A DNA stretch of 64,000 bases. Origin: a phage. Within the stretch, counting starts at the first letter, position 1, and each line of letters begins with the position of its first letter. The notes under the pieces are model-generated. The model saw only the letters and a program-made list of their open reading frames with translations, made no database searches and was not told the origin of the DNA. The stretch lies in the NCBI GenBank assembly GCA_025677605.1, contig GCA_025677605.1_4110.1. The stretch is one strand, 5' to 3'. Positions 25,384 through 57,319 of the stretch are shown piece by piece. A program made the position numbers and the translations under genes.

Positions 25384-25607
25384 ATAGCCACTAGTACTAA
25401 GATGTTTAAAAATTGTTTACGGGTATCCCCTAATAGTGTATTGTGTACAATGCTCACAGTAAGGGTATTCAGTGCACTACCAAGCATAAGGTTACACCCT
25501 GTGCTCTTATGATTTTTTAGTTCAATTAGCCACGATTGGTCAGAGAGAACCTTTGCGTACTCTAGTTCATTTAGTTCATTGATGTAGTACTTTAGAGCAT
25601 ATGGCAT
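25380..25607 (-). CDS. small paralog array member (75 aa), first gene of leftward operon
   Basis: AAGGAG RBS; promoter TTGACA-17-TACTAT immediately upstream. Confidence 0.55.
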   Translation of the reverse strand: MPYALKYYINELNELEYAKVLSDQSWLIELKNHKSTGCNLMLGSALNTLTVSIVHNTLLGDTRKQFLNILVLVAI

Positions 25608-39705: not shown

Positions 39706-39707
39706 AA

Positions 39708-40411: not shown

Positions 40412-40412
40412 A

Positions 40413-41101: not shown

Positions 41102-41433
41102 TAGAAATCTCCCACTATACGTTTCCTGTACAAATACAGACCATACACACCCATCATTACAAGCCACATAATAGTAGTTCCGAATACAATGTATTGTGTA
41201 ATACACGGAAGGTGTGGTTCAAACAAATATATCAAGTGCACTAGAATTCCCAGTACTATTCCTACACCCTGGACGATTGTATACAATATCATATAGTCTG
41301 GGTACAATTTCTCAAGAAGACGACCTTTCTTAAAGAACCACAAGATTCCGATGAGAGCGTGGTAGTATACGAATAGACACATGTATACTAATGTAATTTT
41401 AATCATAACCTCAGTTGAAAATAAATTAATCAT
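41101..41433 (-). CDS. small polytopic membrane protein, paralog family member (110 aa)
   Basis: WFFKKGR loop; basic C-terminus. Confidence 0.6.
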   Translation of the reverse strand: MINLFSTEVMIKITLVYMCLFVYYHALIGILWFFKKGRLLEKLYPDYMILYTIVQGVGIVLGILVHLIYLFEPHLPCITQYIVFGTTIMWLVMMGVYGLYLYRKRIVGDF

Positions 41434-41443
41434 ATGTTCCTCG

Positions 41444-41662
41444 TTAAGTGAACTTAATCATAGTTGATAGTAATACCATGTATACGGATACTACGCTAAT
41501 TAAAACAATAATTTTTAATCCAAGAGATGCTTCTTGAGGATTATACTCCTTTTCAGTATCAATATCAAGTGTATGAAACCATCTATAAACTTTAACTAAA
41601 ACGACAATCATGTTAATACATGCATATAATAACATGACCTTATCGATGTTATATGTTATCAA
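41444..41662 (-). CDS. small membrane protein (72 aa)
   Basis: two hydrophobic segments. Confidence 0.55.
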   Translation of the reverse strand: MITYNIDKVMLLYACINMIVVLVKVYRWFHTLDIDTEKEYNPQEASLGLKIIVLISVVSVYMVLLSTMIKFT

Positions 41663-42436
41663 TTAATTTTTCTCCAGGAACATATTTTCAGCCATTGATT
41701 CCCAGTCGTATGGGAATTTATTGTAAAGACCAGCGATCAGTACTGGCATACGCAGTGAAGGACTACGCAGACGGTCTTCATTGCTCAGCATCCAGTTCAG
41801 GATTGCTTTACAACCATTTTTGTTAACACCATTGTTTTCAAGGATGTTAGTTTTGTTCATGATGTTCTCAATGTGAATCATCACTTCTTCGTTGGTGAAC
41901 AGTTGCAGGTCAACAAAGATACTACGAGTGATCAGTGCATCAATGTGTGGTGCTAAACTGCTTTTACCTTTAGCAATCTGTGACAGGTTTTTGTTAGTCA
42001 GGAAGATTACTTTACCACGGAATTCAAACTGCTTAGGGATACCCTGCTGTTCCAGGTACTTAGCAGAAGTAGCGTAAGATACTACACGCTTCTCAGAAGT
42101 ATCCAATACAGCTTTAAGCAAATCAATATTCGTCTCATCAGAGAAGATATCAACATCATCAAGTAACAGTACTGAAGCAGCGTGACGTGAACGATACAGT
42201 GCTTCGTACAGACCAACAGTAGTTACTTTGCCACTGATTTTCTTGTAGTCGATTTCAAAGTTGTCATCAGCTTTCTGCAACCGTTGGTCAACGTTGAAAG
42301 TTTTACCAACACCACCCTTGCCAGAAACGATCAGAGAGTTGATAGAGTTAGTTTGTGTATCAAGAAGACATTCCAGTGCTGCCATCATGGAGTTGAAGTT
42401 CTTTTCGATTTGGATTGCTTTCTCTGTACGGTTCAT
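41663..42436 (-). CDS. P-loop NTPase with ParA/MinD-type deviant Walker A (257 aa)
   Basis: SGKGGVGKT Walker A; hydrophobic stretch + DD (LLLDDVD) as Walker B; first gene of operon. Confidence 0.55.
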   Translation of the reverse strand: MNRTEKAIQIEKNFNSMMAALECLLDTQTNSINSLIVSGKGGVGKTFNVDQRLQKADDNFEIDYKKISGKVTTVGLYEALYRSRHAASVLLLDDVDIFSDETNIDLLKAVLDTSEKRVVSYATSAKYLEQQGIPKQFEFRGKVIFLTNKNLSQIAKGKSSLAPHIDALITRSIFVDLQLFTNEEVMIHIENIMNKTNILENNGVNKNGCKAILNWMLSNEDRLRSPSLRMPVLIAGLYNKFPYDWESMAENMFLEKN

Positions 42437-42464
42437 TTCGTTACCCTCTGTAGTTGATGATATG

Positions 42465-42500
42465 ATTATAGCAAAAAGGGCTGACCGAAGTCAACCTTTT
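42465..42500 (-). promoter_or_regulatory. terminator-promoter fusion module (stem GGGUUGAC-UUCG-GUCAGCCC, U-run, TATAAT)
   Basis: -35-like TTGACT lies inside the terminator stem; TATAAT 18 bp downstream on minus strand. Confidence 0.6.
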
Positions 42501-42504
42501 TGTT

Positions 42505-43632
42505 TTATACAATCACTTCACCAAAAATACCATTGATATCACGTTCAATGATGTATTCTCCTTCATGTTCAGCTAAGAATTTTTTAATGGCTTCATTAAC
42601 TTTAGGACGATGGATATTATTGAATGTTTCTGTGCAACCATCTCCCTTTTCATAATAACCTTTATTATATAGTTTACCACATAACGCAATTGTATGTATT
42701 ATTATTTCCAATTCTCTAGCAAGTTTCCCACCCACATTCTTATGAAATAAAATGGAAATTTCATTACTCCAAAAATTATCTACTTTATATATTTTTTTAT
42801 AAGATAAGTTTTGTGGACTTAATCTTGCTTTAATAGTTTTGTTTGTAATACCAGCTTTATCCGATTTTTTTGCATAATCATTGTGAATATAAAATCTTCC
42901 AGGCTTGGAAGTTTTAAATCCTTTTACTGCACACGTGGGACAACCAGAACCAGACAGATGTGAATTTGGTGTTTGTTGAAATTCACCATGTTCTTTGCAT
43001 ATTATAATAGAGGTTACTTGGTTGTTAATGTAGTCATATAAAGAATAATCATACTTATTTCCGTGTATAAGATGTGATTTTTTTATAAATTCACCTAAAG
43101 TTTGTTTCGTGCATTCTTGACAACCAATTTTACCAGTAGCTAAGTCAGTAATTGTGGGTTTTTTTATATCACCACAATCATTACATACTACTTCAATTTT
43201 AGTTCTACTAGGAAGTGTAGAGTTAAACGAAGTTATTCCACTATAAGTAAATTTATCATAACCATATTTTTTGTTGATGACACTAATATGATTAAGGCTG
43301 TAATATGGAATATTAATAATATTGTAAAAAATCTTCCCATTAAATCCCTGCCTAATAAAATTCGTGCAGGTGGCTCCAATAACTAACATACCATCGTTAT
43401 TCACTACAAGTTTGGTTTTTGATTTAGATATATAATCTTGTGATCTATTGATATAGAATCCAAGAACTCTTGGATCATTTATTTCACCCATAATACTAAT
43501 AGGATCTTGAGCAATGTTGGATTTTTTTACAAAATTTATATCTTCGGCTTTCATCCACTCAAAAAGCATTCCATGCTCTTCATAAAAATAAACTTTTTCA
43601 CCATCTTCATTAAAATAGTACTGTTCAAACAT
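42505..43632 (-). CDS. zinc-ribbon protein with T5orf172/GIY-YIG-like C-terminal region (375 aa)
   Basis: two CxxC...CxxC pairs; GRFYIH...KAGITN...KARL resembles T5orf172 motif; by eye only. Confidence 0.4.
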   Translation of the reverse strand: MFEQYYFNEDGEKVYFYEEHGMLFEWMKAEDINFVKKSNIAQDPISIMGEINDPRVLGFYINRSQDYISKSKTKLVVNNDGMLVIGATCTNFIRQGFNGKIFYNIINIPYYSLNHISVINKKYGYDKFTYSGITSFNSTLPSRTKIEVVCNDCGDIKKPTITDLATGKIGCQECTKQTLGEFIKKSHLIHGNKYDYSLYDYINNQVTSIIICKEHGEFQQTPNSHLSGSGCPTCAVKGFKTSKPGRFYIHNDYAKKSDKAGITNKTIKARLSPQNLSYKKIYKVDNFWSNEISILFHKNVGGKLARELEIIIHTIALCGKLYNKGYYEKGDGCTETFNNIHRPKVNEAIKKFLAEHEGEYIIERDINGIFGEVIV

Positions 43633-43861
43633 TACTTAAAACTCCTTTCCAGTACTGAACCCGCCCAGCACCATGAATCTTAGCTTGAATCTTATCTTTT
43701 TCGACAAGACCTTCTTTGAAATCAATGGAAGTATTATCGCTCTTAATTACATCTAAGTCAAGTACTTCTTGCGTAGTTAATGATGTATTATCTGCGATTT
43801 GTTGTAGAGTAATTACATCAGTACCGAAGAATTCTGCTAAACGTATAAAAGATAGTTTCAT
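43625..43861 (-). CDS. hypothetical protein (78 aa)
   Basis: track ORF; 8-nt overlap with downstream gene. Confidence 0.6.
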   Translation of the reverse strand: MKLSFIRLAEFFGTDVITLQQIADNTSLTTQEVLDLDVIKSDNTSIDFKEGLVEKDKIQAKIHGAGRVQYWKGVLSNV

Positions 43862-43887
43862 GTATTACCTCTTGAGTTGATGAAATG

Positions 43888-43920
43888 ATTATAGCAAAAA
43901 GGGCTGACCGAAGTCAACCC
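43888..43920 (-). promoter_or_regulatory. terminator-promoter fusion module
   Basis: GGGCTGACCGAAGTCAACCC stem with A5 on plus strand and rc TATAAT at 43888-43893. Confidence 0.6.
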
Positions 43921-43926
43921 CTTATA

Positions 43927-44154
43927 TCATTTATTGTTGTATTCATACCAACACAGTTTAATATTATATACCAAATCCTCATAATCACTACATTGCACTA
44001 TCCATGAATATTTTTCGTCAAATGTATATTTGGGTGAATTAATCATCCATCTTATAGATGCTTTTGTTTTATCAGGATTAAATTTATACGTTTCGCGTGA
44101 CTTGTATGAATCAAGCTTCGCAATCGCATATTTTTTGAATTCTTCATCATTCAT
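43927..44154 (-). CDS. hypothetical protein (75 aa)
   Basis: track ORF; ATGA overlap with denV stop. Confidence 0.6.
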
Positions 44155-44588
44155 TGTATCATATCAACATAATATATAGGTAGCTCAACATCAGTAAACT
44201 TATACCACTTAGGCTTCATTTGAAGCTTCTCAATCAAACGCTCACGCGATGTTTTAATCTCTGACTCAGATGGTACGTAATCATTACAAAACTCAGCAGG
44301 GAACCCACTGATATCGTTTACTTCAGTGTTTTGAATCTTCATACCACGACGCAAACATTCGTTGACAATATCGATATGACGCTTCTGTAAGTACAGTAAC
44401 TTGTCGTAAAAGAATGTTACATGACCTGAACCTAACAGATAAGTACTGTTAATTTTGAAATCACGTACACGCTTACGTGCTTGAACATGTTTTTGTACAG
44501 CACCAAACACACGTGGAAGTTCACGATATTCAGCCATCAGATGTTGGTCAGCAAGTTCTTTAACGTGTACTAAGTTAATGCGTGTCAT
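44151..44588 (-). CDS. denV: pyrimidine dimer DNA glycosylase / endonuclease V (145 aa)
   Basis: N-terminus [44 protein letters not shown] and WYK match T4 endonuclease V as recalled. Confidence 0.8.
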
Positions 44589-44616
44589 GTATTCATCCTC
44601 TCGTTTCGATGAAATG

Positions 44617-44652
44617 ATTATAGCAAAAAGGGCTGACTGAAGTCAATCCTTT
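44617..44652 (-). promoter_or_regulatory. terminator-promoter fusion module
   Basis: AGGGCTGACTGAAGTCAATCCT stem; rc TATAAT at 44617-44622. Confidence 0.6.
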
Positions 44653-44676
44653 TCTTTATTATACAATGCGTACATA

Positions 44677-45048
44677 TTAATCTCCATAATCAAGTTTAAC
44701 TAACTTACCATTCAAATATCCAAAGTTTTCTGGCTTCGCATCTGAATAGAAGAAGTCAGTACTCAACTCTGAATTCGATGCTAACGTACACAACTCCACC
44801 CAAAACAAACCCCTATGTTGTACTGGCTTACAACGTTTCTGTACTGTTATTAAGCCAGTTCGCGATGACCACAGAGTAGGACATATTCCACTGTCACTAC
44901 GCTTGGAGTACTGCATCCACGAACGTTCATTGAGGTTAGCTATCATCCCCGTTAAGAATAACTTCCAGCTTTTGAAGGTTGGAATCTTGATAGCATAATC
45001 CCCGATAAGGATAACAGTTCGGGTTGCACCTTTCAAATCTATATTCAT
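44677..45048 (-). CDS. hypothetical protein (123 aa)
   Basis: track ORF. Confidence 0.6.
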   Translation of the reverse strand: MNIDLKGATRTVILIGDYAIKIPTFKSWKLFLTGMIANLNERSWMQYSKRSDSGICPTLWSSRTGLITVQKRCKPVQHRGLFWVELCTLASNSELSTDFFYSDAKPENFGYLNGKLVKLDYGD

Positions 45049-45057
45049 ATTTTTTAA

Positions 45058-45309
45058 TTAGAAGAACACAAACCAAGTCCAGAATAAATTCCACACTACA
45101 AATAAAGACATAGTGGTTTTATGTACAATATCAGCAGTACTGGTCCATCCTCCACCGTGTCCTATTCCATTTATGAATAGAACTAAGAACAAGATACCAT
45201 TTACTACAATAGTACATACTAAGTACACAAACACATTCCATGCAAGTTCAGGGGATACTAAAGTAAATGGTAAAACAATTAGTAGTATTAGAACTAATAA
45301 AATTTTCAT
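45058..45309 (-). CDS. small membrane protein (83 aa)
   Basis: hydrophobic throughout. Confidence 0.6.
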   Translation of the reverse strand: MKILLVLILLIVLPFTLVSPELAWNVFVYLVCTIVVNGILFLVLFINGIGHGGGWTSTADIVHKTTMSLFVVWNLFWTWFVFF

Positions 45310-45348
45310 TTATCGCCTCACTTAATTAACGTGACATATCACGTAATA

Positions 45349-45525
45349 TTAGTACGAATCAGATTCCCAGTACTCGATTGCTTCTTTCAGCAATTCGTTA
45401 GCACGTTGTTTTGCAACACGAGCGGGTAACTGATATGTGTACATTAACTGACGCTTTACTTCATTTAATGAACACTGTTCATGATATAGGGCATCCATCA
45501 GTCGATTGCGAGTACGTAGTTTCAT
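45349..45525 (-). CDS. hypothetical small protein (58 aa)
   Basis: hand-translated; AAGGATAA RBS. Confidence 0.45.
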   Translation of the reverse strand: MKLRTRNRLMDALYHEQCSLNEVKRQLMYTYQLPARVAKQRANELLKEAIEYWESDSY

Positions 45526-45536
45526 ATAAGTTATCC

Positions 45537-46091
45537 TTATTTCAAAGAATCATAATAAGCAGTGTCAAAGATTGGAGTCATAATAACATAGTCAATACGG
45601 TCAATGTAAGTTGAACTCCACATTTCAGGTTTATCATATAAATGACGTTCACGTTCATTTATAATAGTTAATACTTCTTCCAATTTACTACGTGAAGCCA
45701 TCAAAGTATCACGGGAGCCATAAGTGAAGTACTCAGTCCATTGATATTCATATGCAGTATAGATAGATTGAATAGTTCCATCTTTGAAATGAGCTAAGGC
45801 ATAACCTTTCTCTACAAAGTTATCAGGTGGAAGAACTTCATCTAGATTAGTTTTCAATGCTTCTGCTAACTTTTCTTTAATTTCAGTTAACGTGCACACT
45901 GAACGAATGTTCTTCAGGTTTGATACTTGAAAATCACTGTACTTCCCAAAGAAAAAGACACGCCAATCTTTAGGTTCATTATCAGATACGGTAGCATCAG
46001 GATGATGGGCGAGTAAACGAAGAAGGCCAGCTTTGTGACCGTTAATGTAGATTTCATGGATGTGGTTGGCAGTTTTCTTAAAAGTAATCAT
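45537..46091 (-). CDS. hypothetical protein (184 aa)
   Basis: track ORF; early-type promoter + hairpin at 46100-46170. Confidence 0.6.
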   Translation of the reverse strand: MITFKKTANHIHEIYINGHKAGLLRLLAHHPDATVSDNEPKDWRVFFFGKYSDFQVSNLKNIRSVCTLTEIKEKLAEALKTNLDEVLPPDNFVEKGYALAHFKDGTIQSIYTAYEYQWTEYFTYGSRDTLMASRSKLEEVLTIINERERHLYDKPEMWSSTYIDRIDYVIMTPIFDTAYYDSLK

Positions 46092-46176
46092 GGTAGTTCC
46101 TCGATTGAAGGGATGAGAAGTTCATCCCCTTGATAAACATTATACAGTACTAGTTGAGTTTGTCAAATACTTTTCA

Positions 46177-46527
46177 TCAACGCTCTGGTAATTTGTCTCG
46201 GAGTTTCTCAAGTTTCATAATCAAAGAGAAGAGTCCCCACGCGAAAAACCAAACTACAGTCCCAAAAACAACAAAGAATGTTGTTAGTGTGCACATCATT
46301 CCACCAGTACTTTGGATACCAGTTAGCAGTACTTCACCCACTGCCATAGTTAAGAATACAAATGCGAAGAAGTGAATTGGTGCATCATCCCAATAGCGTT
46401 TGTAGAATGTATTGTATCGGAAGAATAATAAAATATACCCAAGCATATAGTACATCCATCCTAGTCCTGATACGATAAACGATACCAGGTTTAATTCATA
46501 CATATAATCATTCATTATCAGGTTCAT
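46177..46527 (-). CDS. small membrane protein (about 116 aa; start uncertain)
   Basis: hydrophobic; track ORF begins at GTG; first ATG at 46525-46527. Confidence 0.5.
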   Translation of the reverse strand: MNLIMNDYMYELNLVSFIVSGLGWMYYMLGYILLFFRYNTFYKRYWDDAPIHFFAFVFLTMAVGEVLLTGIQSTGGMMCTLTTFFVVFGTVVWFFAWGLFSLIMKLEKLRDKLPER

Positions 46528-46768
46528 CACAGTTCATAAGAGCGTTACGGGCAATCCTTGCGGATTGTGCCAGGGACAATACACTCTCCAGTGTAGCAAC
46601 ACTGTAAGAGTTAGAACCAATGGTAATCAGAAGAGATTGTGAATTATCAACGTCAATGTAACCAACTTCAACGCGTTGTGGAGGACCATCGTTCAGTACA
46701 TAGTTAGTGTCATGTTCAACACGAGCAAGACGGATTTGTGTAAACATTTTCAATTCAGGGTTTTGCAT
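46508..46768 (-). CDS. hypothetical protein (86 aa)
   Basis: track ORF; GGAGAT RBS. Confidence 0.6.
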   Translation of the reverse strand: MQNPELKMFTQIRLARVEHDTNYVLNDGPPQRVEVGYIDVDNSQSLLITIGSNSYSVATLESVLSLAQSARIARNALMNCDEPDNE

Positions 46769-46781
46769 TAGATATCTCCAG

Positions 46782-47057
46782 TTATAAAAGTTCTAAGAAT
46801 AATTTATTACATGCATCTTTATGTTTCAAATAATATAGATAATAAAGATTCGGTTCACCGTTCTTCGATGAAAGATCAAAGTAATTTAAATTTCGAACAT
46901 GAACCATAAAGCAAATTAATTCTTTTGCACCAACCTCCCCATACTTCACGATAAGTTCATCTAAGTGGATGTAACTTTTCGAGTCTTTCAGTTCTTCAAT
47001 ATCACTTAAAATTTCTTCATAACGCATTGAGCCAACTAAACGTTCGTATGTGTTCAT
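46782..47057 (-). CDS. hypothetical protein (91 aa)
   Basis: track ORF. Confidence 0.6.
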   Translation of the reverse strand: MNTYERLVGSMRYEEILSDIEELKDSKSYIHLDELIVKYGEVGAKELICFMVHVRNLNYFDLSSKNGEPNLYYLYYLKHKDACNKLFLELL

Positions 47058-47084
47058 AGAGTTTCTCCTTTAGGTTATGTGAGT

Positions 47085-47122
47085 ATTATAGCAAAAAAGG
47101 CTGACCGAAGTCAACCTCTTTT
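47085..47122 (-). promoter_or_regulatory. terminator-promoter fusion module
   Basis: AGGCTGACCGAAGTCAACCT stem flanked by A6 and T6; rc TATAAT at 47085-47090. Confidence 0.6.
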
Positions 47123-48707: not shown

Positions 48708-48748
48708 TATAGAATAGCAAAAAGGGTCAACAAAAGTCAACCCTTTTT
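48708..48748 (-). promoter_or_regulatory. terminator-promoter fusion module (variant stem)
   Basis: GGGTCAACAAAAGTCAACCC with flanking A/T runs. Confidence 0.5.
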
Positions 48749-48975
48749 TAATATGAAGTATTGTTCAAGAATGTAACTTTTGCACACGATATCTCAAATG
48801 ACATATAACGTGTCATATCTCGAAATTCATTTTCTATGCATTGTAACAGTACTTCAACTTCATTTTCACCAATGTAATACTCATCTCTGACGAATATCTC
48901 ACTGGTGTATTTCTCACTACTAATACTTTTCTCTCTTACTTTAAGTAGGTATTCAATTTTATACCTTTTCATCAC
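48748..48975 (-). CDS. hypothetical protein (75 aa)
   Basis: track ORF. Confidence 0.55.
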   Translation of the reverse strand: MMKRYKIEYLLKVREKSISSEKYTSEIFVRDEYYIGENEVEVLLQCIENEFRDMTRYMSFEISCAKVTFLNNTSY

Positions 48976-49403
48976 AACTCCGATGAGAATATAAATCCTT
49001 TCATATCCTCTTTAGTTAGGGAAAGTTCTGGAATGTACTTTAAAATAATGCACTTAGGTTTAGCTAATGCAGCTTGCAGTACTGAATCAACTAAAGGACG
49101 CAGTACATCTGCACTGTAGTTCTTATTCTCAATGTTGAATATCTTATTCTTCACATCTGCACCTGGTAGCTTATTGATCCCTTCAAAGATCTTATGCATT
49201 ACATCTTCTTCAGTACTGCTATATGCCCATGCAGGTAATGGTAGGCACTCAATTACCTGACCGAGTTCATCCATAACTGCAATACTGCGAACACAGGCAG
49301 AACTCATGAACAAACGTCCACGAACAAAGGTATCAGTTTCCAGATTAACAAATGCAAAGATATCAATTTCATTAAGTTCAGTACTATTAACGTTAACCCA
49401 CAT
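48972..49403 (-). CDS. hypothetical protein (143 aa)
   Basis: track ORF; 4-nt overlap. Confidence 0.6.
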   Translation of the reverse strand: MWVNVNSTELNEIDIFAFVNLETDTFVRGRLFMSSACVRSIAVMDELGQVIECLPLPAWAYSSTEEDVMHKIFEGINKLPGADVKNKIFNIENKNYSADVLRPLVDSVLQAALAKPKCIILKYIPELSLTKEDMKGFIFSSEL

Positions 49404-49414
49404 ATTTTTTCCTG

Positions 49415-49993
49415 TTATAGATCACGGACAATATTCATCAAACAAGTCTTAGGTTTGATACATTTGAAGAAGTACACCATCGTCTTATATTGTTTAATTA
49501 TATCATCCAAATTTGGCGTTAGCAAGCTTTCTTGAAAATATTCTTCTTCGCTCAAGTTTGGGAGGTCTTTCACGTCACAATTCAACTCAATAATATTAGA
49601 ACTTGTGGTGTACTCATCGATAGTTTTAAGTTGAACAATCTCCCACTCAAATATACCAGCACTCAATGTACCGATAATACGAATACGTTCCGGCTTATCA
49701 GATGCATCTCTGCAATAGATACGTATAAACCCAGTACCGTATCGTCTGTAATCATCTATCGTAATGTCCAGACCATCGTATACGAAGGATACTGAAATAA
49801 TATTTTCAGTTGGATGTGCATCTTTCCCTGTACTATTGTTAGTACTTATATATCTAATATCAATCTTGTTAGATACTATCTTTCTACTCAGGGCAGAAAG
49901 TTTATTGTGTGCTTTGATAAAACCTAAGCATATATCATTGAACCTTCCACTTTTATTCTTCTTTGATACTTTAAACTTACCTTTACGGTTCAT
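49415..49993 (-). CDS. hypothetical protein (192 aa)
   Basis: track ORF. Confidence 0.6.
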   Translation of the reverse strand: MNRKGKFKVSKKNKSGRFNDICLGFIKAHNKLSALSRKIVSNKIDIRYISTNNSTGKDAHPTENIISVSFVYDGLDITIDDYRRYGTGFIRIYCRDASDKPERIRIIGTLSAGIFEWEIVQLKTIDEYTTSSNIIELNCDVKDLPNLSEEEYFQESLLTPNLDDIIKQYKTMVYFFKCIKPKTCLMNIVRDL

Positions 49994-50038
49994 AAGTCAC
50001 CATTATACAAAAGGGCTGACTTATGCCAACCCCGTAGT

Positions 50039-50263
50039 TTAATATCTTTTTACTTCACATGGTACATCTGGTTTGTACAAAATGATTATATCATTCACAA
50101 GGAAAATCACTGTTCCTCTATCATTGTGTATTGCCATCTTAACCGACTTACCCTGATATGTCTCTGTGTAGCCACCGCTAACGTTTGTACACTTCACAAA
50201 GTACTTGATTCTGGCTTGTACTATTGTGCTCACAAACATTAATGCCACCAGCATGTATTTCAT
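50039..50263 (-). CDS. putative small secreted protein (74 aa)
   Basis: signal-peptide-like MKYMLVALMFVSTIVQA. Confidence 0.55.
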   Translation of the reverse strand: MKYMLVALMFVSTIVQARIKYFVKCTNVSGGYTETYQGKSVKMAIHNDRGTVIFLVNDIIILYKPDVPCEVKRY

Positions 50264-50284
50264 TTACTCGTGTCCATCAGACTA

Positions 50285-50548
50285 TTAGAATTGAATAGCA
50301 ATACCTTTAGATGTAATTTCAAACGTACAGTTGTAGCGAGCCGCCATATCAATGTACATATGTTCAGAATACCACGGAACGTTGATATCTGGTTGATTAT
50401 CATATACCAGGCAGTCATTGTCACCAATGTGCTCGACTTTAAATGGGACACCCATTTCAGTTAAAAACAACTCAGCACCTGGTGTGCGACGAAGGAACTC
50501 CACATCATCACGCAGACGAAAACCATGATAGTTCAATTTCAGTTTCAT
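50285..50548 (-). CDS. hypothetical protein (87 aa)
   Basis: track ORF. Confidence 0.55.
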   Translation of the reverse strand: MKLKLNYHGFRLRDDVEFLRRTPGAELFLTEMGVPFKVEHIGDNDCLVYDNQPDINVPWYSEHMYIDMAARYNCTFEITSKGIAIQF

Positions 50549-50905
50549 TTAATCCCCTATTGAATAGTTGTTCATTTGTGCAATTAAGTTCATTATAACA
50601 CAAATAACGTACAAGTCGAACTTTATTTTGTTGTGATTAATTACACTATTATCAGGTACATACCCAACACACTCAACTGTGTATTCAAGGAATGATAGTT
50701 CAGAATCATCTGAATCTATATCTGCCTTAATGAAGTACTTTAAATGTGGATGTGTATTAGTGTATGAACTTAAAATCTGTTGGAACTTATTTCGTAGTTC
50801 ACGAGTTAACTTTATGTAATCTTCATCGTCACGTTGGTCGAAATACGGATCTTGTGGTATTTCATAACTCAAGTACTTTGCAAATCGTGTTGATGTTTTA
50901 TCCAT
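50549..50905 (-). CDS. hypothetical protein (118 aa)
   Basis: track ORF 50549..50938 trimmed to ATG at 50903-50905 (8-nt overlap with upstream stop). Confidence 0.55.
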   Translation of the reverse strand: MDKTSTRFAKYLSYEIPQDPYFDQRDDEDYIKLTRELRNKFQQILSSYTNTHPHLKYFIKADIDSDDSELSFLEYTVECVGYVPDNSVINHNKIKFDLYVICVIMNLIAQMNNYSIGD

Positions 50906-51338
50906 ATGCCATCTCTTCCTTATTAAATCTTGTAGCACGAAATTCTTCTTTAGCTTCCTTTACTGACATAATACGAAGTAGTTTTGCACTACCACAATAG
51001 TACTGAACTTGGTTATGTCCAATGTCCACATGGTTATCTGGAACTTCATACACAAAAACAGAAAACCCTGAACAATGAAGTTTACCTAAGTCCATTGTAA
51101 AGAATCTGAACAGGTCGTTTAAACTTTGGCATCCAAATGCCCAGCCACGCTTTATAGAATAAATTCCATCGTCGGTGGGTTCTGGTTGAAATTGCGTGGG
51201 TGTAGTCATACGCAGACGGTCGAATCCATTGGCAGTACTGTATCGTGATGAATATCGTGCGAATGGACCTACCGTTTTGGCTGGTTCCAGATTTGGTTCA
51301 ATATAGCTGAATTTCAGTTCAAAACGATATACAATCAT
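50898..51338 (-). CDS. hypothetical protein (146 aa)
   Basis: track ORF begins at GTG; first ATG at 51336-51338. Confidence 0.55.
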   Translation of the reverse strand: MIVYRFELKFSYIEPNLEPAKTVGPFARYSSRYSTANGFDRLRMTTPTQFQPEPTDDGIYSIKRGWAFGCQSLNDLFRFFTMDLGKLHCSGFSVFVYEVPDNHVDIGHNQVQYYCGSAKLLRIMSVKEAKEEFRATRFNKEEMAYG

Positions 51339-51369
51339 GATGTGCACCTATTCAATTAATATGGAATAA

Positions 51370-51408
51370 GTATAACAAAAAAGGCTGACGTTAGTCAACC
51401 TTTTTTAA
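51370..51408 (-). promoter_or_regulatory. terminator-promoter fusion module
   Basis: AAGGCTGACGTTAGTCAACCTT stem flanked by A/T runs. Confidence 0.55.
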
Positions 51409-51762
51409 TCAATCATCATATGTACACTCACCTCCAAAATCAGCCTCCTTATCTCCAATACGTTTAAGTACGAGTTTGACTTCTTGTGTTCCGTCTTCAC
51501 CCTCTATCATATTCACTTGAAGGTAGGCTCTATAATCAGTGTCACCTGTTTTTGCATATTCAGTGAAACTGATATCACCAACAGTATGGTCTTTAACGTA
51601 TGTATATTCAGTACCATCGATGTAAATGATATCAAGGTCATCTGAATCCCCTTGGAATATGTGTTGTTCAGAATTCTCTTTACAAAGCAATCCGGCTAAG
51701 GGTGCAGCATAAGAGACACCACACATAATAATACACATAAAAAATAATATAACTTTCATCAT
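51409..51762 (-). CDS. putative secreted protein (117 aa)
   Basis: signal-peptide-like MMKVILFFMCIIMCGVSYA. Confidence 0.6.
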   Translation of the reverse strand: MMKVILFFMCIIMCGVSYAAPLAGLLCKENSEQHIFQGDSDDLDIIYIDGTEYTYVKDHTVGDISFTEYAKTGDTDYRAYLQVNMIEGEDGTQEVKLVLKRIGDKEADFGGECTYDD

Positions 51763-52133
51763 TTTTTCCTCTGCATATCTCTGTTCAATACCATTTCACG
51801 ATACATATTATACAACACATCAATCTTATAAACAATATACCACAAACAACAAATACTTGCCATACCTGCGGTCATAGAAACATTACTATTAGATACAAAT
51901 CCCAATTGTTCCAAAATGATCATCATAAAATACAATGTATTGGTAATAATAGATGAATTCCATGCTGGTGAATCCACATCAAAATGCATTGTTATTTTTA
52001 AAATGATTCCATCTGATTGTTTTAAAATGTAATACCATATACCATAGATTGACCCCATCATAAAAGTTACAAAACAAATACCAAAAATGATTTGTGGAAG
52101 TACTAATGAGAACCCAATGATACTATTGAACAT
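51759..52133 (-). CDS. membrane protein (124 aa)
   Basis: several hydrophobic segments. Confidence 0.6.
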   Translation of the reverse strand: MFNSIIGFSLVLPQIIFGICFVTFMMGSIYGIWYYILKQSDGIILKITMHFDVDSPAWNSSIITNTLYFMMIILEQLGFVSNSNVSMTAGMASICCLWYIVYKIDVLYNMYREMVLNRDMQRKK

Positions 52134-52147
52134 AGATTTACCTTAAA

Positions 52148-52513
52148 TTATATTTGACAATGTAAATGAAGTTTATCAAGATCCAGACTTCTTTTATTGG
52201 AATGATCACGGTAAACCACTACATATATATCCCCTGTATTATTTTCAGGATCAACTATCAGTATGACATTAGCAATTATACCAGAATCAGTTCTAAATGT
52301 CGATACCTTTTTGTTGCCAATTTTACTTTCACTAACAAAACGATAATTTTCACCATCTATTAGTATATCAGTACCATTATATGGATCACTGGAAAACGTA
52401 TGCCACTGTCCATCATTTCCTATGCAATCGAACCACGCAACGTCCTCGTTAGCTTCAACTGGCATAACATTAAGTGCCATTATCATGGCTATTATAATTG
52501 TAAGCTTTCCCAT
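52148..52513 (-). CDS. putative secreted protein (121 aa)
   Basis: signal-peptide-like MGKLTIIIAMIMALNVMPVEA; loosely resembles 51409..51762. Confidence 0.6.
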   Translation of the reverse strand: MGKLTIIIAMIMALNVMPVEANEDVAWFDCIGNDGQWHTFSSDPYNGTDILIDGENYRFVSESKIGNKKVSTFRTDSGIIANVILIVDPENNTGDIYVVVYRDHSNKRSLDLDKLHLHCQI

Positions 52514-52604
52514 ATTAACCTCAAAATAATAAAAAAATACTTGCGTACTTAACTAGTACACAAGTATTTAATACTATTCTGTATTTTATATGAGTACTTG
52601 GTTA

Positions 52605-52937
52605 TTACTTATCAGATTTTGATTTAAACTTCACTTTAAGTAAGAAAATCCAATCAGAAACCAAACCACTAAACAAACATTGAATAAACCATACAATAGC
52701 TACTAAATTTTCAACAACGGAAATCCATGCAAGTACAGTAGATAGTGGTAATAAAAAGCCCAATAGCCACACAACAGCATACACACATACTAAAACATAA
52801 AAGATCCCAACTACTGGACTATCCAGATTGAATAGTTTACGTAGGTCATTTTTAACTTCTTCATCTTTCTGGAATGCTTCAAAAAGTAATACAAAAAGAA
52901 GAACAAAACAAGGGATAGAAAGAATAAATGATAACAT
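52605..52937 (-). CDS. membrane protein (110 aa)
   Basis: hydrophobic segments. Confidence 0.6.
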   Translation of the reverse strand: MLSFILSIPCFVLLFVLLFEAFQKDEEVKNDLRKLFNLDSPVVGIFYVLVCVYAVVWLLGFLLPLSTVLAWISVVENLVAIVWFIQCLFSGLVSDWIFLLKVKFKSKSDK

Positions 52938-52957
52938 TAGTAGTTCCTCATATTAAT

Positions 52958-53218
52958 TTAACGGAGTTGGCTGTCTTTACTTCCACGTCTATTATAACGC
53001 TCTTGATATACCTTGTCAACCTTTGATTGACACTGAACACATCGTTTTACACCCTTCAGTACTAACCTCCGCTTCTCTGGTATCTCACAGTCACAGTCGA
53101 TGCAGTACTCTTCAGACTCACCACTATACAGATTTGAGCGAGCAAAGTCAATAGCATTATCAATAGTTGCTTGTATCGTTTCTTGGTGGTTATCTGGTGA
53201 ACCAAACCCTACTGCCAT
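52958..53218 (-). CDS. TraR/DksA-family C4 zinc-finger protein (86 aa)
   Basis: CIDC-x18-CVQC near C-terminus, typical of TraR/DksA C4 fingers. Confidence 0.55.
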   Translation of the reverse strand: MAVGFGSPDNHQETIQATIDNAIDFARSNLYSGESEEYCIDCDCEIPEKRRLVLKGVKRCVQCQSKVDKVYQERYNRRGSKDSQLR

Positions 53219-53250
53219 AATATCCCCCTTAGTAGAAGGATATTATAGGT

Positions 53251-53493
53251 CTAACCTTCAAGTTTGTCAAGTACTTCTTTTTCTTGGAACAACATTAGGA
53301 ATGAAATATATAGTAGTATATGACTCACAATCATCATCCAATCAGTAGACCAATAAAGAGTCAGACTTACCAATACCCATGCAGTATTCAAGAGAAATAC
53401 TTTTACAGCATCATAAAATTTACCCCATACTAAAGTTAAAATAGTTGGAGAAAAGTTAACTAATAAAATCAGTACAACGTATAAAATTAACAT
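53251..53493 (-). CDS. small membrane protein (80 aa)
   Basis: track ORF 53251..53535 trimmed to ATG at 53491-53493 (1-nt overlap). Confidence 0.55.
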   Translation of the reverse strand: MLILYVVLILLVNFSPTILTLVWGKFYDAVKVFLLNTAWVLVSLTLYWSTDWMMIVSHILLYISFLMLFQEKEVLDKLEG

Positions 53494-54158
53494 TATAGTG
53501 TTTCCTTTTTCTTTACTGGGATTAGTTCGTAACAATAAACAACATCAATACCTTCTTCATCATACAAGTACTCATGCTTTTTCTTATGAGTACCAATGTA
53601 TGTGCCGTGCTTATGCCAACGCCACCCACCATGTTCAGGTTGATCTTCCTTGTACACTGGATGAAATCCAATAACAACTTCCATTTCAGATGTAAGAACA
53701 TTCTTATGTTTCTTAAGGATCTGCTGTAAGTTGTCAGCTACACCGTAAGGGGAATTACAATGTGTTGACAATGGGAATGGTCTACCACTTGGCAATAATT
53801 CACTCTCATATGAAGCACTACACATAGCAAGAAAATCATCAGAATTATAGAACTCACCATTGTTCGTATTAATATATTGCAGACTTTTAATAACTTCATA
53901 GTCTGTCATAAAGTTAATGACTTTATCTATACCATAACCCGCTAATATACCAGGTGTAGGCGTCTGCACAGCACAAAATAAACGATTACTATCTTCTTCC
54001 GTTAGATTAGCCTTTTCCCAGAATGGATGCTTTCTGTCAAAACGACTTTCGTATAAAGTTCCTTTGATACCATCGCTATCGTATGGAACTTTCTCAAGAT
54101 ACATACCACGACTTTGTACCATATCATCACTAATAATGTAACTTAAATTGGCGAGCAT
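53493..54158 (-). CDS. hypothetical protein (221 aa)
   Basis: track ORF. Confidence 0.6.
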   Translation of the reverse strand: MLANLSYIISDDMVQSRGMYLEKVPYDSDGIKGTLYESRFDRKHPFWEKANLTEEDSNRLFCAVQTPTPGILAGYGIDKVINFMTDYEVIKSLQYINTNNGEFYNSDDFLAMCSASYESELLPSGRPFPLSTHCNSPYGVADNLQQILKKHKNVLTSEMEVVIGFHPVYKEDQPEHGGWRWHKHGTYIGTHKKKHEYLYDEEGIDVVYCYELIPVKKKETL

Positions 54159-54222
54159 ACGTATTCCTCAGTTAATTCATAATACAGATATAATACTCGC
54201 TTTTTACATGCGTGTCAAGTTT

Positions 54223-54435
54223 TTAAAGCGTAGGCCACACTTTAAATTGTAGTTGCTGATACTGTACATCTACTGTTTCTTTCTTATCAAAGGATTCAGA
54301 TACTTTAATCTCTGCTTCGTACTCACCTTCTGCATGTACGACAAATTTAAATTCTTCAACATGTGAGAAACGCATACCACGATCACCATCAAAACGGAAA
54401 ACCTGCACTGTACCTTCTACTAGATATAAATTCAT
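54223..54435 (-). CDS. hypothetical protein (70 aa)
   Basis: track ORF. Confidence 0.55.
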   Translation of the reverse strand: MNLYLVEGTVQVFRFDGDRGMRFSHVEEFKFVVHAEGEYEAEIKVSESFDKKETVDVQYQQLQFKVWPTL

Positions 54436-54656
54436 TCTTCATCATCCTCGTCTAAAAGTTTAATAGATTTAATTGTTTCAATATAACGTTGTGTCTTTGT
54501 TGTATTGAACTTTGTCAGGTCATTTAACAGTAAAGAGAGAACATGGGCTTCATCGCGACCCCTAACATATATCGTGCGTTCACTCATGACCTTTTCATAG
54601 CCACGAATGTTATCAAATTCAGATATACCCACGTATTCAATCACGTATCTGTTCAT
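54432..54656 (-). CDS. hypothetical protein (74 aa)
   Basis: track ORF; 4-nt overlaps on both sides. Confidence 0.55.
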   Translation of the reverse strand: MNRYVIEYVGISEFDNIRGYEKVMSERTIYVRGRDEAHVLSLLLNDLTKFNTTKTQRYIETIKSIKLLDEDDEE

Positions 54657-55159
54657 TTATCATCCGCTTGTATGTCAAAGGCTTTACAGAAATTACCTAC
54701 TCTTTTACCAGGAACTGACATGTATATGTTATATGGCAATTCACATACCTTATTGGAAATTGCCAGTACTTTAGGAATATCAGGATCGTGTAGTTCAAAG
54801 TTGTATAGCAATGAACTTTGAAATACACCCTCTTCAGTACTGTAATCTACAATGAACAGTTCGTGTGATGATGGTATATCATATTCTACAATGTTTTTGT
54901 GATTCGGTCTATTATGAAAGTGAATTTCATATGTATCACGCACCGTTGGTTTAGATAGATAAACCGCAGATTCAAAAAGATCACCAATACCGAATGTAAC
55001 ATCACACAGCTTATCACCGTTTGTATCATACAAATAGAACATTGTACTATCAAATACTTTATCAGATACAATATTCATAGTATTGTACGTACCATTGTAG
55101 CTCTCATTGAAGTTGATAAACTCTATGAACTTTACAAACTTATCAGTACTAAGATTCAC
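54653..55159 (-). CDS. hypothetical protein (168 aa)
   Basis: track ORF. Confidence 0.6.
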   Translation of the reverse strand: MNLSTDKFVKFIEFINFNESYNGTYNTMNIVSDKVFDSTMFYLYDTNGDKLCDVTFGIGDLFESAVYLSKPTVRDTYEIHFHNRPNHKNIVEYDIPSSHELFIVDYSTEEGVFQSSLLYNFELHDPDIPKVLAISNKVCELPYNIYMSVPGKRVGNFCKAFDIQADDK

Positions 55160-55359
55160 TACTTCACCTCAATGACCTTAAGGTTAACAAAGTCACCTTT
55201 GACCTTCATACATTTGTATTCGGTACGAGTTTCTTCACCAGCATCACGAGGCCAGTGTGTCGCAGAATAACACTGCTCAGGTGTTTTATATACACCGTCA
55301 CCGAATGTACGTGTGATTTCACCATTTGTTAGTACTACGGCTAGATATAAAGTAAACAT
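55159..55359 (-). CDS. hypothetical protein (66 aa)
   Basis: track ORF. Confidence 0.55.
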   Translation of the reverse strand: MFTLYLAVVLTNGEITRTFGDGVYKTPEQCYSATHWPRDAGEETRTEYKCMKVKGDFVNLKVIEVK

Positions 55360-55516
55360 GTGTATTCCTCAAAAAAACTTATTAATGATAACTGCAAACA
55401 GTCCCAGTACTGCAATTATTACAGATACCCACATTACTGCGTTCACAGTGCCAGTGAGTTCTTTATCAAACTCTCGGCACTTCTTGCGGTACTCTTCCCA
55501 TTCTTTATTGTTCACC

Positions 55517-55726
55517 TTATGCTCCCAATAAATCCGTTGCTTTCTTGAGAACAACGTCAATTGTTTCCAGTACTGCACCTTTGTGTTCAATTGATACAAT
55601 ATTATTATAAGTATCAAGGTCCAAGTATTCCATGTATTCAGTTTTGAATACACGAACATCAGTACTAGTGATTTTAATATCACAACCTTTATTCCAAATA
55701 ACCTGCATCATTTCATTGGTAGTCAT
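55517..55726 (-). CDS. hypothetical protein (69 aa)
   Basis: track ORF; 1-nt overlap with upstream lipoprotein gene. Confidence 0.55.
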   Translation of the reverse strand: MTTNEMMQVIWNKGCDIKITSTDVRVFKTEYMEYLDLDTYNNIVSIEHKGAVLETIDVVLKKATDLLGA

Positions 55727-56001
55727 TATTCAACCTTATCATAAACAAGTTTGTGTGTGCTTAGTACTTTGTTGAGGTGTCCTGGACAATCATATACATA
55801 CAGACGCTCCTGACGTTTTTCCCAACCCCCACAAATACGTCCTGCTTGTGTACATATTTCATATTCGTTAATAAAAGACTTACCTGTGAATGTACAATCC
55901 TGACGAACTAAGTCTTTTGCACTGAACCTGCCGTCATCATTACATGCTGTAAGAAACATTGTACAGAATACAACAAACACCGTCAAGAGTTTTTTAATCA
56001 T
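55726..56001 (-). CDS. putative lipoprotein (91 aa)
   Basis: signal peptide with lipobox FLTAC. Confidence 0.6.
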   Translation of the reverse strand: MIKKLLTVFVVFCTMFLTACNDDGRFSAKDLVRQDCTFTGKSFINEYEICTQAGRICGGWEKRQERLYVYDCPGHLNKVLSTHKLVYDKVE

Positions 56002-56366
56002 TTAACATCTCCCCAACGGCAACCCTTCATATGATTCAAATTCACCTCAACTATTTCATGTGTGTCAGTGCACAATATCGACAGTTTTTTTGTAAAATCA
56101 CCTGGTGAACTTTCATATTTCACACAATATCCTTCGATACGGAGAACCGAATGAGTCCATGATTCCCACTCAATCCAAATTTCATTTGGGTGATATACAA
56201 TATCTTCGTTTAACTTGTGATATTCATCTAGTGGAAGCTGTGTAGTGATATCAACATATTTTACATTTCGAATGAGTTTTTCAAGCTGATATTTTGCATT
56301 AGCAAGATATTCTTCATCATTCAAACGTTCCAAGATATTTGCCGAACGAGTAGTATCAAGACTCAT
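55998..56366 (-). CDS. hypothetical protein (122 aa)
   Basis: track ORF. Confidence 0.6.
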   Translation of the reverse strand: MSLDTTRSANILERLNDEEYLANAKYQLEKLIRNVKYVDITTQLPLDEYHKLNEDIVYHPNEIWIEWESWTHSVLRIEGYCVKYESSPGDFTKKLSILCTDTHEIVEVNLNHMKGCRWGDVK

Positions 56367-56368
56367 TG

Positions 56369-56614
56369 TTATTCTCCATGAACCACAGATGTATCCACGC
56401 GAACTTTACCACTCATATAAGACGTAGTAGTGTTTGCATTAGGACAGTAAACAGTGTACAAAGTTGCACCTGCACCTTCCTGTTGCATACGATAAATCTT
56501 ACACCCTGCTTCTTTGAGTTCAGTTGGTAAAACAAACTCACCAGTTCGTTCTTTTGTTGAAGCATCACATGCAGTGAGTAGGAAAGCAATTAGTACTGCT
56601 ACAATATATTTCAT
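56369..56614 (-). CDS. putative lipoprotein (81 aa)
   Basis: signal peptide with lipobox LLTAC. Confidence 0.6.
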   Translation of the reverse strand: MKYIVAVLIAFLLTACDASTKERTGEFVLPTELKEAGCKIYRMQQEGAGATLYTVYCPNANTTTSYMSGKVRVDTSVVHGE

Positions 56615-56922
56615 TAACGAACCTCCACTTCTTGAGAAAGAGCATGAGTCAGTGCATTTGAATTCGAACCATTCATTTCACGCTGACATACAAACATAAT
56701 GGCATCTTGTACTGAACCTGCGATTTCATACTCACGACCTTCTGGATCAGTTACCAGATGTTCAACGATACAACCACCACGCAGTACAGAAGCACCAGTA
56801 CTTACACTAATTCTGTAACCTAAGAAATCAAACTGCATACATGCGTCAGTAGGTTTCATCCAATAACCGCTGTTTTGATTCAAATCGATGATTACAAAAC
56901 CTTGAGTGTTAGTTTGAAACAT
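56614..56922 (-). CDS. hypothetical protein (102 aa)
   Basis: track ORF; early-type promoter + long UTR hairpin at 56940-57040. Confidence 0.6.
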   Translation of the reverse strand: MFQTNTQGFVIIDLNQNSGYWMKPTDACMQFDFLGYRISVSTGASVLRGGCIVEHLVTDPEGREYEIAGSVQDAIMFVCQREMNGSNSNALTHALSQEVEVR

Positions 56923-57040
56923 AGTTAATTCCTCATTTAATTTAAAAGGGCGGGAACGCAGTGACGAGTACGATTATGCTGTCTTTCCTTTCACTGCATT
57001 CCCTTTGATATAAACATTATACTGCTATTATTCAGTACAG

Positions 57041-57319
57041 TCAATCGATATAAGTACCTTTTTTTACTTCACAGACTTCTTCCATCCAATGTGGATTTTC
57101 GTTTTTATCAGTGAAGATTTGTTCTGCTTCTTCTTTTGTTTCAGCTAGGACAATACGATCCCCGTCATCCAAAACACGGATACGATAAACTTTCAGTTCT
57201 TGTTTCTGCTCAAGGATATTACACAGTTCACGTGCTTTTTCTTCATCGCACTCCCCTTCATTAGCATAAAACCAGATTGCTTTTTTAATAAGGTCACGTT
57301 CTTCTTTGGTAAAAGACAT
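57041..57319 (-). CDS. hypothetical acidic protein (92 aa)
   Basis: track ORF. Confidence 0.6.
   Translation of the reverse strand: MSFTKEERDLIKKAIWFYANEGECDEEKARELCNILEQKQELKVYRIRVLDDGDRIVLAETKEEAEQIFTDKNENPHWMEEVCEVKKGTYID

Follow-up and report, generated by a model that had tools for sequence, protein, structure and literature searches.

Within a 64,000-nt stretch of phage DNA (NCBI GenBank assembly GCA_025677605.1, contig GCA_025677605.1_4110.1; hereafter the window), which belongs to an Asteriusvirus jumbo myophage of E. coli, the interval from 50,039 to 56,614 is occupied by a gap-free array of about 22 small genes, all on the minus strand, and nine of these are predicted to target their products to the envelope: two lipoproteins, three secreted proteins, and four small membrane proteins. 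We propose that these genes encode early-expressed, envelope-targeted accessory proteins, distributed over three units, that alter the envelope in the phage's favor, a reading to which we assign a probability of roughly one half. An earlier reading made from the sequence only had described three putative secreted proteins and two lipobox lipoproteins interspersed with small membrane proteins. All five open reading frames (ORFs) are present on the minus strand exactly where it placed them and are annotated coding sequences in Escherichia phage A4, which is 98.3% identical to positions 50000–56700 of the window over the full length, and the interspersed membrane proteins (48, 80, 110, and 124 aa; Table 1) are real. 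At the DNA level, other members of the genus (121Q, PBECO4, and others) match only the last 23% of that segment, and the array genes are labeled hypothetical in A4 and 121Q, with the exception of one zinc-finger protein. The same reading had treated the exported genes as a single cluster; signals are indeed concentrated here, but their unity was overstated, given that the genes fall into three units, independent of one another and unlike in evolutionary history, and do not make up one system.

The signals were sought with a rule-based screen of the 144 gene-like ORFs of the window, which combined a PROSITE-style lipobox, n-, h-, and c-regions with the -3/-1 rule, and Kyte–Doolittle detection of transmembrane (TM) segments. 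A lipobox was defined as [LVI][ASTVI][GAS]C with the cysteine at about position 15–35, a positive n-region, and a hydrophobic h-region, and a call for Sec and signal peptidase I as a tripartite signal with small residues at -3 and -1 and no other TM segment. Lipobox matches were confined to 2 of the 144 ORFs, both of them flagged earlier, with LTAC followed by Asn in 55726–56001 (MIKKLLTVFVVFCTMFLTA/C20NDD; precursor N-terminus MIKKLLTVFVVFCTMFLTAC, Cys20) and by Asp in 56369–56614 (MKYIVAVLIAFLLTA/C16DAS; precursor N-terminus MKYIVAVLIAFLLTAC, Cys16; slashes mark predicted cleavage). Four ORFs have a rule-based cleavable Sec signal: 51409–51762 (...GVSYA/APLAG), 52148–52513 (...MPVEA/NEDVA), 50039–50263 (...TIVQA/RIKYF), which is the weakest call, with a short h-region and basic residues directly past the site, and 15076–15375 (minus strand, 99 aa, MKVAIIALALSVSSFAVNA/SLDVPG), the sole other ORF of the window with a good Sec signal. 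Of the six ORFs with a signal, five thus fall within a stretch of 19 ORFs (hypergeometric p = 1.3e-4; scan-statistic permutation p = 0.005). Given that the rule set also fires on 4 of 214 shadow ORFs (about 2%), the rules alone are not proof, and it is conservation of the signals, described below for each family, that carries the calls. On this sequence evidence the flagged proteins are very probably exported or lipid-anchored.

The timing of expression is suggested by the promoters. The window contains 28 near-consensus sigma70 promoters (TTGAC[AT]-N16-18-TA[TC]A[AC]T), all on the minus strand, which is the coding strand, against 0.59 expected from shuffles. They occupy the ranges 2042–21146, 41052–47114, and 51369–62842, with 14 in the first 21 kb, most of those 14 having a 16-nt spacer, and six lie in or beside the array, at 51398, 53019, 53270, 57044, 57392, and 58107; a sigma-factor gene is found near the array. 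In the related phage CBB, the same promoter architecture was read as an early region served by host RNA polymerase (PMC5259590). The assignment of the array to an early region that would be transcribed by host RNA polymerase is well supported by these features.

The ORFs, the signals and their conservation, paralogy, fold class, synteny, and promoters are observed; export, lipidation, timing, and any exclusion activity we infer. Within minutes of infection, the exported proteins would pass through Sec, the lipoproteins would be processed by Lgt and LspA, and the exported proteins would be oxidized by DsbA and then bind envelope components; the resulting change would most likely block secondary phage entry or shield the infected cell from outside attack. 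T4 Imm and Sp are made early, Sp being an early periplasmic lysozyme inhibitor. T5 Llp is likewise an early-made exclusion protein (PMC9586334). An envelope role such as superinfection exclusion is plausible for the proteins of the array, and to this extent the sequence-only reading stands: they are very probably exported or lipid-anchored and are encoded within a predicted host-sigma70 early region, the stage at which known exclusion proteins are made.

The first unit is a seven-gene module that reads, from 54158 to 51409, a 221-aa cytoplasmic protein, a two-TM protein, a DksA/TraR-type protein, a three-TM protein, a secreted protein, a TM protein, and a second secreted protein. Klebsiella phage K64-1 (Alcyoneusvirus) has the same seven-gene order, with 31–71% identity for six of the seven genes, and its orthologs of the secreted proteins, gp332 and gp334, retain the signal feature. 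Because gene order and similarity are kept in K64-1, the module and both secreted paralogs are judged, from sequence, to predate the split between Asteriusvirus and Alcyoneusvirus. The DksA/TraR gene matches PF01258, the C4 zinc-finger family with a CxxC...CxxC motif, with 31.7 bits (gathering cutoff 24.9) and phrog_54 with E = 3.6e-20; a counterpart is absent from 121Q. The secreted proteins encoded at 51409 and 52148 are distant paralogs (BLASTP E = 5e-5, 22% identity) that both match phrog_27330, and in both a signal-like N-terminus and an invariant Cys pair persist at 20–56% identity across three genera-level lineages. Their family comprises five representative clusters among 1.84 billion proteins, found only in Asteriusvirus and RaK2/K64-1-like phages.

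For the mature 51409 protein (98 residues), AlphaFold2 gives an all-beta model that has eight strands (predicted local distance difference test [pLDDT] 87.8, predicted template-modeling score [pTM] 0.79) and places the invariant Cys pair on the first and last strands. The top Foldseek match in the PDB is the non-canonical lipocalin Tp0751 (5jk2; E = 8e-3, probability 1.0, TM-score 0.54), followed by avidins, lipocalins, and an immunity protein of the type VI secretion system (T6SS; 9jdd_B, TM-score 0.51). According to this model the secreted paralogs are periplasmic calycin-like eight-stranded barrels, probably closed by a disulfide. They have in common with the calycin superfamily (lipocalins, avidins, Tp0751, and the similar-sized MliC/PliC) an eight-stranded antiparallel architecture, a length of about 100 residues, and secretion, and the predicted disulfide linking the first and last strands adds to the calycin-type likeness. 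Unlike the calycin families, however, they have no sequence-family membership (neither Pfam nor NCBIfam places them among lipocalins, avidins, or MliC), their fold match has an E-value of only 8e-3, and they are confined to Asteriusvirus and RaK2-like jumbo phages. Each barrel gene directly follows a gene for a polytopic membrane protein, an order kept in K64-1, and such pairs may be new two-component envelope modules. No paralogy was detected between the membrane proteins encoded at 51759 and 52605. Three other candidates for the barrel family, EcMJ_541 and the products of 15076–15375 and 50039–50263, show no detectable relation to it, and P0131, a protein of 1,164 aa with six matches to a secreted protein, was disregarded as a eukaryotic Ig-repeat protein whose repeats inflate the E-value.

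Two other functions can be considered for these barrels. MliC and PliC are eight-stranded barrels of similar size. The barrels, and possibly the lipoproteins, might accordingly be inhibitors of peptidoglycan hydrolases, with a Spackle-like function and an MliC/PliC-like fold, that protect against tail lysozymes or lysis from without. Small periplasmic eight-stranded barrels with a closing disulfide and predicted early expression are what this idea calls for, and the fold matches include a T6SS immunity protein; we nevertheless think it unlikely, given that no match to the MliC/PliC, Ivy, PliG, or Spackle families was found in Pfam, PHROG, or NCBIfam, that the top 50 Foldseek matches contain no lysozyme inhibitor, and that the conserved pairing with membrane proteins is left unexplained. 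We hold it to be just as unlikely that the exported proteins serve host physiology or ligand handling unrelated to exclusion, with the barrels, for example, binding a lipid or small molecule, or their membrane partners modulating transport or a stress response. Top fold matches to lipocalin-type ligand binders and avidins, the order of barrel after membrane protein kept in K64-1, and a DksA/TraR regulator within the module would agree with such a role, but lipocalin motifs and Pfam matches are lacking, the family is tiny and restricted to phages, and no metabolic genes lie nearby.

The second unit is the lipoprotein operon, which extends from 56922 to about 54223, is predicted to be translationally coupled, with overlapping starts and stops, and is separate from the other exported genes. 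It is 85–100% identical to its 121Q counterpart, except for the 122-aa gene (65%). In the family of the 91-aa lipoprotein, which is confined to Asteriusvirus and related Salmonella and Klebsiella jumbo phages, Cys20, Cys36, and Cys72 are invariant, an accessory Cys50/Cys57 pair is present, and an acidic stretch follows the lipid-bearing cysteine. Both lipoproteins share an LY.VY.CP[GN] motif; distant paralogy between them was considered and is not established (hhalign local P = 0.034; phrog_902 E = 0.13). The TM segment of the 48-aa tail-anchored protein of the operon matches Csx18 (NCBIfam 18.9 bits, cutoff 50; PADLOC 21.4 bits), a match that we consider spurious and that probably reflects similarity between hydrophobic segments.

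The 81-aa lipoprotein matches phrog_902 (E = 3.6e-14) and belongs to a much wider family, with relatives in 577 phage records by tblastn (Vibrio Demerecviridae, Felixounavirus, Certrevirus, Acinetobacter, and jumbo phages) and 136 protein clusters by profile search, none of them functionally named; the lineages include Felixounavirus, the T4-like Aeh1, T5-like Vibrio phages, Vequintavirinae, and several jumbo lineages. A back-translated motif of the family had 0 matches in 185,579 representative bacterial and archaeal genomes. The lipobox is kept in 115 of 119 members, 99 of those 115 have exactly two more cysteines, and the mature domain keeps the motifs LP, C-K-I-Y, V-x-C-P, and G-K. Position +2 is occupied by Asp in 42 members, by Glu in 15, by Asn in 12, and by Thr or Ser in 32. 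Asp at +2 acts in E. coli as a Lol-avoidance signal that causes retention in the inner membrane; the protein of the window (C-D-A), which has Asp at this position, is therefore probably retained there, and location is probably not uniform across the family. A model of the mature domain has a short helix and a four- to five-stranded sheet, with moderate confidence (pLDDT 75, pTM 0.49). In current Pfam, the generic lipid-attachment motif LPAM_1 recurs in 26 of 120 members; the precomputed tag PF16225, carried by every relative (P0001–P0125), was treated as unreliable because 0 of 120 members match current Pfam for it at E ≤ 1.

Database labels on relatives point to known exclusion proteins: the 81-aa homolog EcMJ_513 is deposited as a "Cor superinfection exclusion protein" and the 91-aa homolog of fEgEco12 as a "lytic conversion lipoprotein." T5 Llp and Cor bring about superinfection exclusion by blocking FhuA. 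The lipoproteins of the array would by this account be receptor blockers of the same type, located in the outer membrane and bound to the receptor of this phage at its periplasmic face, in the way that T5 Llp binds FhuA. The likeness is real in outline, since Llp and Cor are also small phage lipoproteins of about 60–70 mature residues that are early, mostly beta, and contain one intramolecular disulfide, features matched here by small, beta-rich lipoproteins with a predicted disulfide. In addition, the 81-aa protein and EcMJ_513 match phrog_1119 with E = 0.014 and 9e-4, respectively, the family to which HK022 Cor and T5 Llp belong at 2.4e-37 and 1.1e-19, and CKIYRMQ of the 81-aa protein resembles CEAYYMQ of Llp over a short local stretch (hhalign P = 0.038). 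The phrog_1119 match of the 81-aa protein, however, spans residues 1–48 and so includes the generic signal peptide, with no similarity beyond it. Pairwise BLASTP of the lipoproteins against Cor and Llp gave E = 0.39 or no alignment, a sequence search of the PDB gave no match, and hhalign of the mature domains against Cor and Llp gave probabilities below 2%, although the positive control, Cor versus Llp, failed as well, so that this comparison has little power.

Cysteine topology and gene context also speak against receptor blocking of the Cor/Llp type. The criterion derived from Cor and Llp is one cysteine about 10 residues past the lipid-bearing one and another near the C-terminus, as in the pairs C28/C76 of Cor and C26/C73 of Llp (about 47 residues apart); the pair of the 81-aa protein, C38/C57, is separated by 19 residues, and C36/C72 of the 91-aa protein comes closer to this topology, yet its second cysteine is not terminal. 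T5 llp abuts pb5 and HK022 cor follows a J-like gene, and such a position next to the gene for the receptor-binding protein characterizes both (PMC9586334). The lipoprotein genes, in contrast, are not beside a receptor-binding or tail gene here, in A4, in 121Q, in Felixounavirus, or in Vibrio phages; elsewhere, including Felixounavirus and Vibrio phages, the 81-aa gene lies amid small ORFs of early or replication regions, away from tail genes. A Foldseek search of PDB and BFVD with the moderate-confidence 81-aa model (pLDDT 75) retrieved neither Llp nor Cor and only members of the family itself (for example, lipoproteins of Aeh1, ME3, and fHe-Yen9-03). The family further differs from Llp and Cor in that its +2 residue is often Asp, Glu, or Asn, with Asp predicting inner-membrane location, and in that it spans phages of Vibrio, Acinetobacter, Pectobacterium, and E. 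coli, which cannot have one receptor in common. We therefore regard receptor blocking by the lipoproteins as decidedly improbable.

A comparison with T4 leads to a similar outcome. T4 imm and sp are single-gene accessory cassettes of variable early regions. Their products resemble the exported proteins of the array in being small, in early sigma70-driven expression, and in inner-membrane or periplasmic location (predicted here); they differ in that no profile match was found here and in that the secreted proteins here are modeled as all-beta. No protein of the array or window matches Imm_superinfect (PF14373) or the Spackle family phrog_1586. In phage vB_Ec-M-J, EcMJ_535 and EcMJ_540 are labeled "immunity to superinfection"; the immunity genes of this phage score 15.7 bits against PF14373 (cutoff 27.9) and are not among the genes of the window. 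At the end of the same array in vB_Ec-M-J (L100), positions 353–589, 2378–2641, and 2638–2934 encode two such multi-TM "immunity" proteins and a signal-peptide protein. Since these three extra genes are absent from the window, the locus varies in its content of envelope-targeted genes; additional genes for small membrane and secreted proteins are found there in related Asteriusviruses. Searches of PADLOC, NCBIfam, and Pfam gave no substantial match for any exported protein. Taken together, the labels Cor, lytic conversion lipoprotein, and Imm have no support from tests of sequence, Cys pattern, context, and fold, several of which were low-powered. The suggestion that the proteins mediate superinfection exclusion or receptor masking specifically thus found no backing in Cor/Llp similarity, Cys topology, gene context, fold, or searches for Imm and Spackle.

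For the 81-aa family as a whole, we offer with considerable doubt the proposal that it is a large, unrecognized class of phage lipoproteins, common to virulent phages of Gram-negative bacteria, that acts in receptor-independent exclusion through a conserved envelope process. A conserved process would be targeted, and not a specific receptor, because the family, unlike Cor and Llp, is untied to a receptor-binding gene; candidate processes include cell-wall hydrolysis and the passage of DNA through the periplasm or inner membrane.

O-spanins are the classical example of small phage lipoproteins, and some antiholins, T4 RI among them, are small periplasmic proteins. The lipoproteins and membrane proteins could on this precedent be lysis components, either o-spanin/i-spanin pairs or antiholin and lysis-inhibition factors, and single members of the 81-aa family do show weak matches to Lysis_col or LysC. 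These Pfam matches, however, are sub-threshold and confined to signal peptides. The spanin reading was rejected on gene context: the flanking genes (56614–56922, 55998–56366, and 55517–55726) have no TM segment, and no coiled-coil type-II membrane protein adjoins. Neither lipoprotein has a C-terminal TM segment, which excludes a unimolecular spanin; instead of being proline-rich, the mature domains are beta-rich, folded, and Cys-paired, and the promoters are of early type, so that a lysis role seems highly improbable. Least credible of all is that the signal-like N-termini arose by chance in AT-rich small ORFs rich in hydrophobic codons and lead to no export, an idea that could draw on the firing of the rules on about 2% of shadow ORFs, the marginal signal of 50039, and the rule-based nature of the calls, but that does not account for signals and Cys pairs kept at 22–57% identity across genera, for the clustering of five of the six signal ORFs, or for a mature domain that is modeled to fold confidently without its signal.

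The third unit ends with the 74-aa probable secreted protein, which follows three cytoplasmic genes (50898–51338, 50549–50905, and 50285–50548). Its relatives keep MKY, a hydrophobic run, V-x-A, and the invariant Cys pair at 45% identity. The unit is bounded by hairpin/promoter elements at 51407–51369 and 50033–50002, and a third such element is found at 48711–48748; in elements of this kind the -35 box (GGTTGAC) lies within the stem, and a T-run and then a -10 box come after it. In A4, two copies of the hairpin (L001, about 4365–4400 and 4728–4766) flank a 356-bp segment with ORFs of 63 and 41 aa that is missing from the window, and the 41-aa ORF represents what is left of the C-terminal part of a secreted barrel gene in its 121Q-type allele. 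This 356-bp difference looks like a cassette exchange or deletion by recombination between promoter–stem-loop repeats. Promoter early stem-loop (PeSL) cassettes of T4-type phages are similar in that hairpin and early-promoter elements bound small early ORFs, and here the elements coincide with an indel and an allele remnant; they are unlike the present case in phage group and element sequence, and the comparison covers the three putative elements looked at here. Arbiol, Comeau, and Krisch reportedly described in 2010 such modular shuffling of T4-type hyperplastic regions.

Mosaicism also accounts for the divergence of most of the array. Relative to 121Q, the block 48972–55159 is 24–63% identical, with one gene at 80%, whereas 55159–57691 is mostly 85–100% identical (55998–56366, 65%), and the boundary at 55159 is sharp. 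We considered whether the divergent block records an arms race and rejected this reading: divergence is equal in cytoplasmic and exported genes, which indicates mosaic replacement and not selection peculiar to exported proteins.

Returning to our proposal of early envelope-targeted accessory proteins, several points weigh against it. There is no homology link to known exclusion proteins, tests for Cor/Llp, Imm, Spackle, MliC, and PADLOC systems being negative or sub-threshold; the divergence is not specific to the exported genes, which are thus without an arms-race signature of their own; and more than half of the array genes are cytoplasmic. The signal calls, moreover, consist of a rule-based screen and conservation, with that of 50039 marginal, the calycin fold is a generic one, as compatible with ligand binding as with protein inhibition, and the lipoprotein model is only moderately confident (pLDDT 75, pTM 0.49). 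Early accessory proteins destined for export are a familiar feature of phages, and the families described here are uncharacterized ones without demonstrable kinship to the known examples.

Table 1. Genes and regulatory elements of the array and its borders (window coordinates, from high to low).
Feature	Position	Strand	Remarks
Sigma70-type promoter ahead of the lipoprotein operon	57016–57044	-	TTGACT-N17-TATAAT
102-aa cytoplasmic protein, first gene of the operon	56614–56922	-	phrog_26720 (function unknown); 100% identical to 121Q counterpart
81-aa lipoprotein	56369–56614	-	Lipobox LTAC, Cys16, Asp at +2; predicted mature length 66 aa; invariant Cys38/Cys57; phrog_902
122-aa cytoplasmic protein between the lipoprotein genes	55998–56366	-	phrog_22236; start and stop overlap neighbors; 65% versus 121Q
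91-aa lipoprotein	55726–56001	-	Lipobox LTAC, Cys20 followed by N-D-D; phrog_31263
69-aa cytoplasmic protein of the lipoprotein operon	55517–55726	-	
48-aa protein with a single C-terminal TM segment	55369–55515	-	GTG start; phrog_38271
66-aa protein with two Cys	55159–55359	-	Weak sub-threshold DUF1482 likeness; export not predicted
221-aa cytoplasmic protein, first gene of the module	53493–54158	-	50% identical to K64-1 gp328
80-aa two-TM membrane protein	53251–53493	-	Counterpart of K64-1 gp329
86-aa DksA/TraR-type C4 zinc-finger protein	52958–53218	-	Own perfect sigma70 promoter 53270–53242; 71% identical to K64-1 gp330
110-aa three-TM membrane protein	52605–52937	-	Perfect sigma70 promoter 53019–52991 ahead; hairpin 52569–52535 after
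121-aa secreted protein (paralog B)	52148–52513	-	Predicted signal ...PVEA/NE; invariant N- and C-terminal Cys pair; calycin-like beta-barrel family (model)
124-aa polytopic membrane protein	51759–52133	-	33% identical to K64-1 gp333
117-aa secreted protein (paralog A)	51409–51762	-	Predicted signal ...VSYA/AP; modeled mature length 98 aa
Hairpin with -35 box in the stem, then T-run and -10 box (putative terminator/promoter)	51369–51407	-	Junction of 356-bp indel versus A4
74-aa probable secreted protein	50039–50263	-	MKYMLVALMFVSTIVQA/R...; invariant Cys25/Cys69; about 57 residues once cleaved
Second hairpin/promoter element, closing the array	50002–50033	-	TTGGCA-N16-TATAAT

Several features of the window lie outside these units. 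Just upstream of the array, 57962–58774 (minus strand) encodes a homolog of the HNH endonuclease 121Q gp170, with a perfect sigma70 promoter (58107–58079) near its 3' end, and the A4 label "sigma-70 family RNA polymerase sigma factor" on the 92-aa ORF at 57041–57319 (minus strand) seems unlikely for its size. A run of six small polytopic membrane proteins with 2–4 TM segments each occupies 38969–41662 (minus strand), with two more such genes at 62834–63720 (minus strand), and the sole match of these runs is to DUF350, weak and sub-threshold. At 22160–25607 (minus strand), where GC skew changes sign, a tandem array of paralogous ORFs of about 59–75 aa repeats every 184–198 nt (families D1–D3). 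No tRNA gene was found anywhere in the window.

As it stands, the analysis is a sound but ordinary improvement of annotation, with genes that are real and products that are probably exported. Most jumbo-phage genes lack a known function, and exported early proteins offer a short list of candidates for remodeling of the host envelope. If the 81-aa family does act in exclusion or envelope protection, genes in hundreds of phage genomes, Felixounaviruses and other therapeutic candidates among them, would gain an annotation, and the labels "Cor," "Llp," and "Imm" that are spreading by automated annotation would also be corrected.

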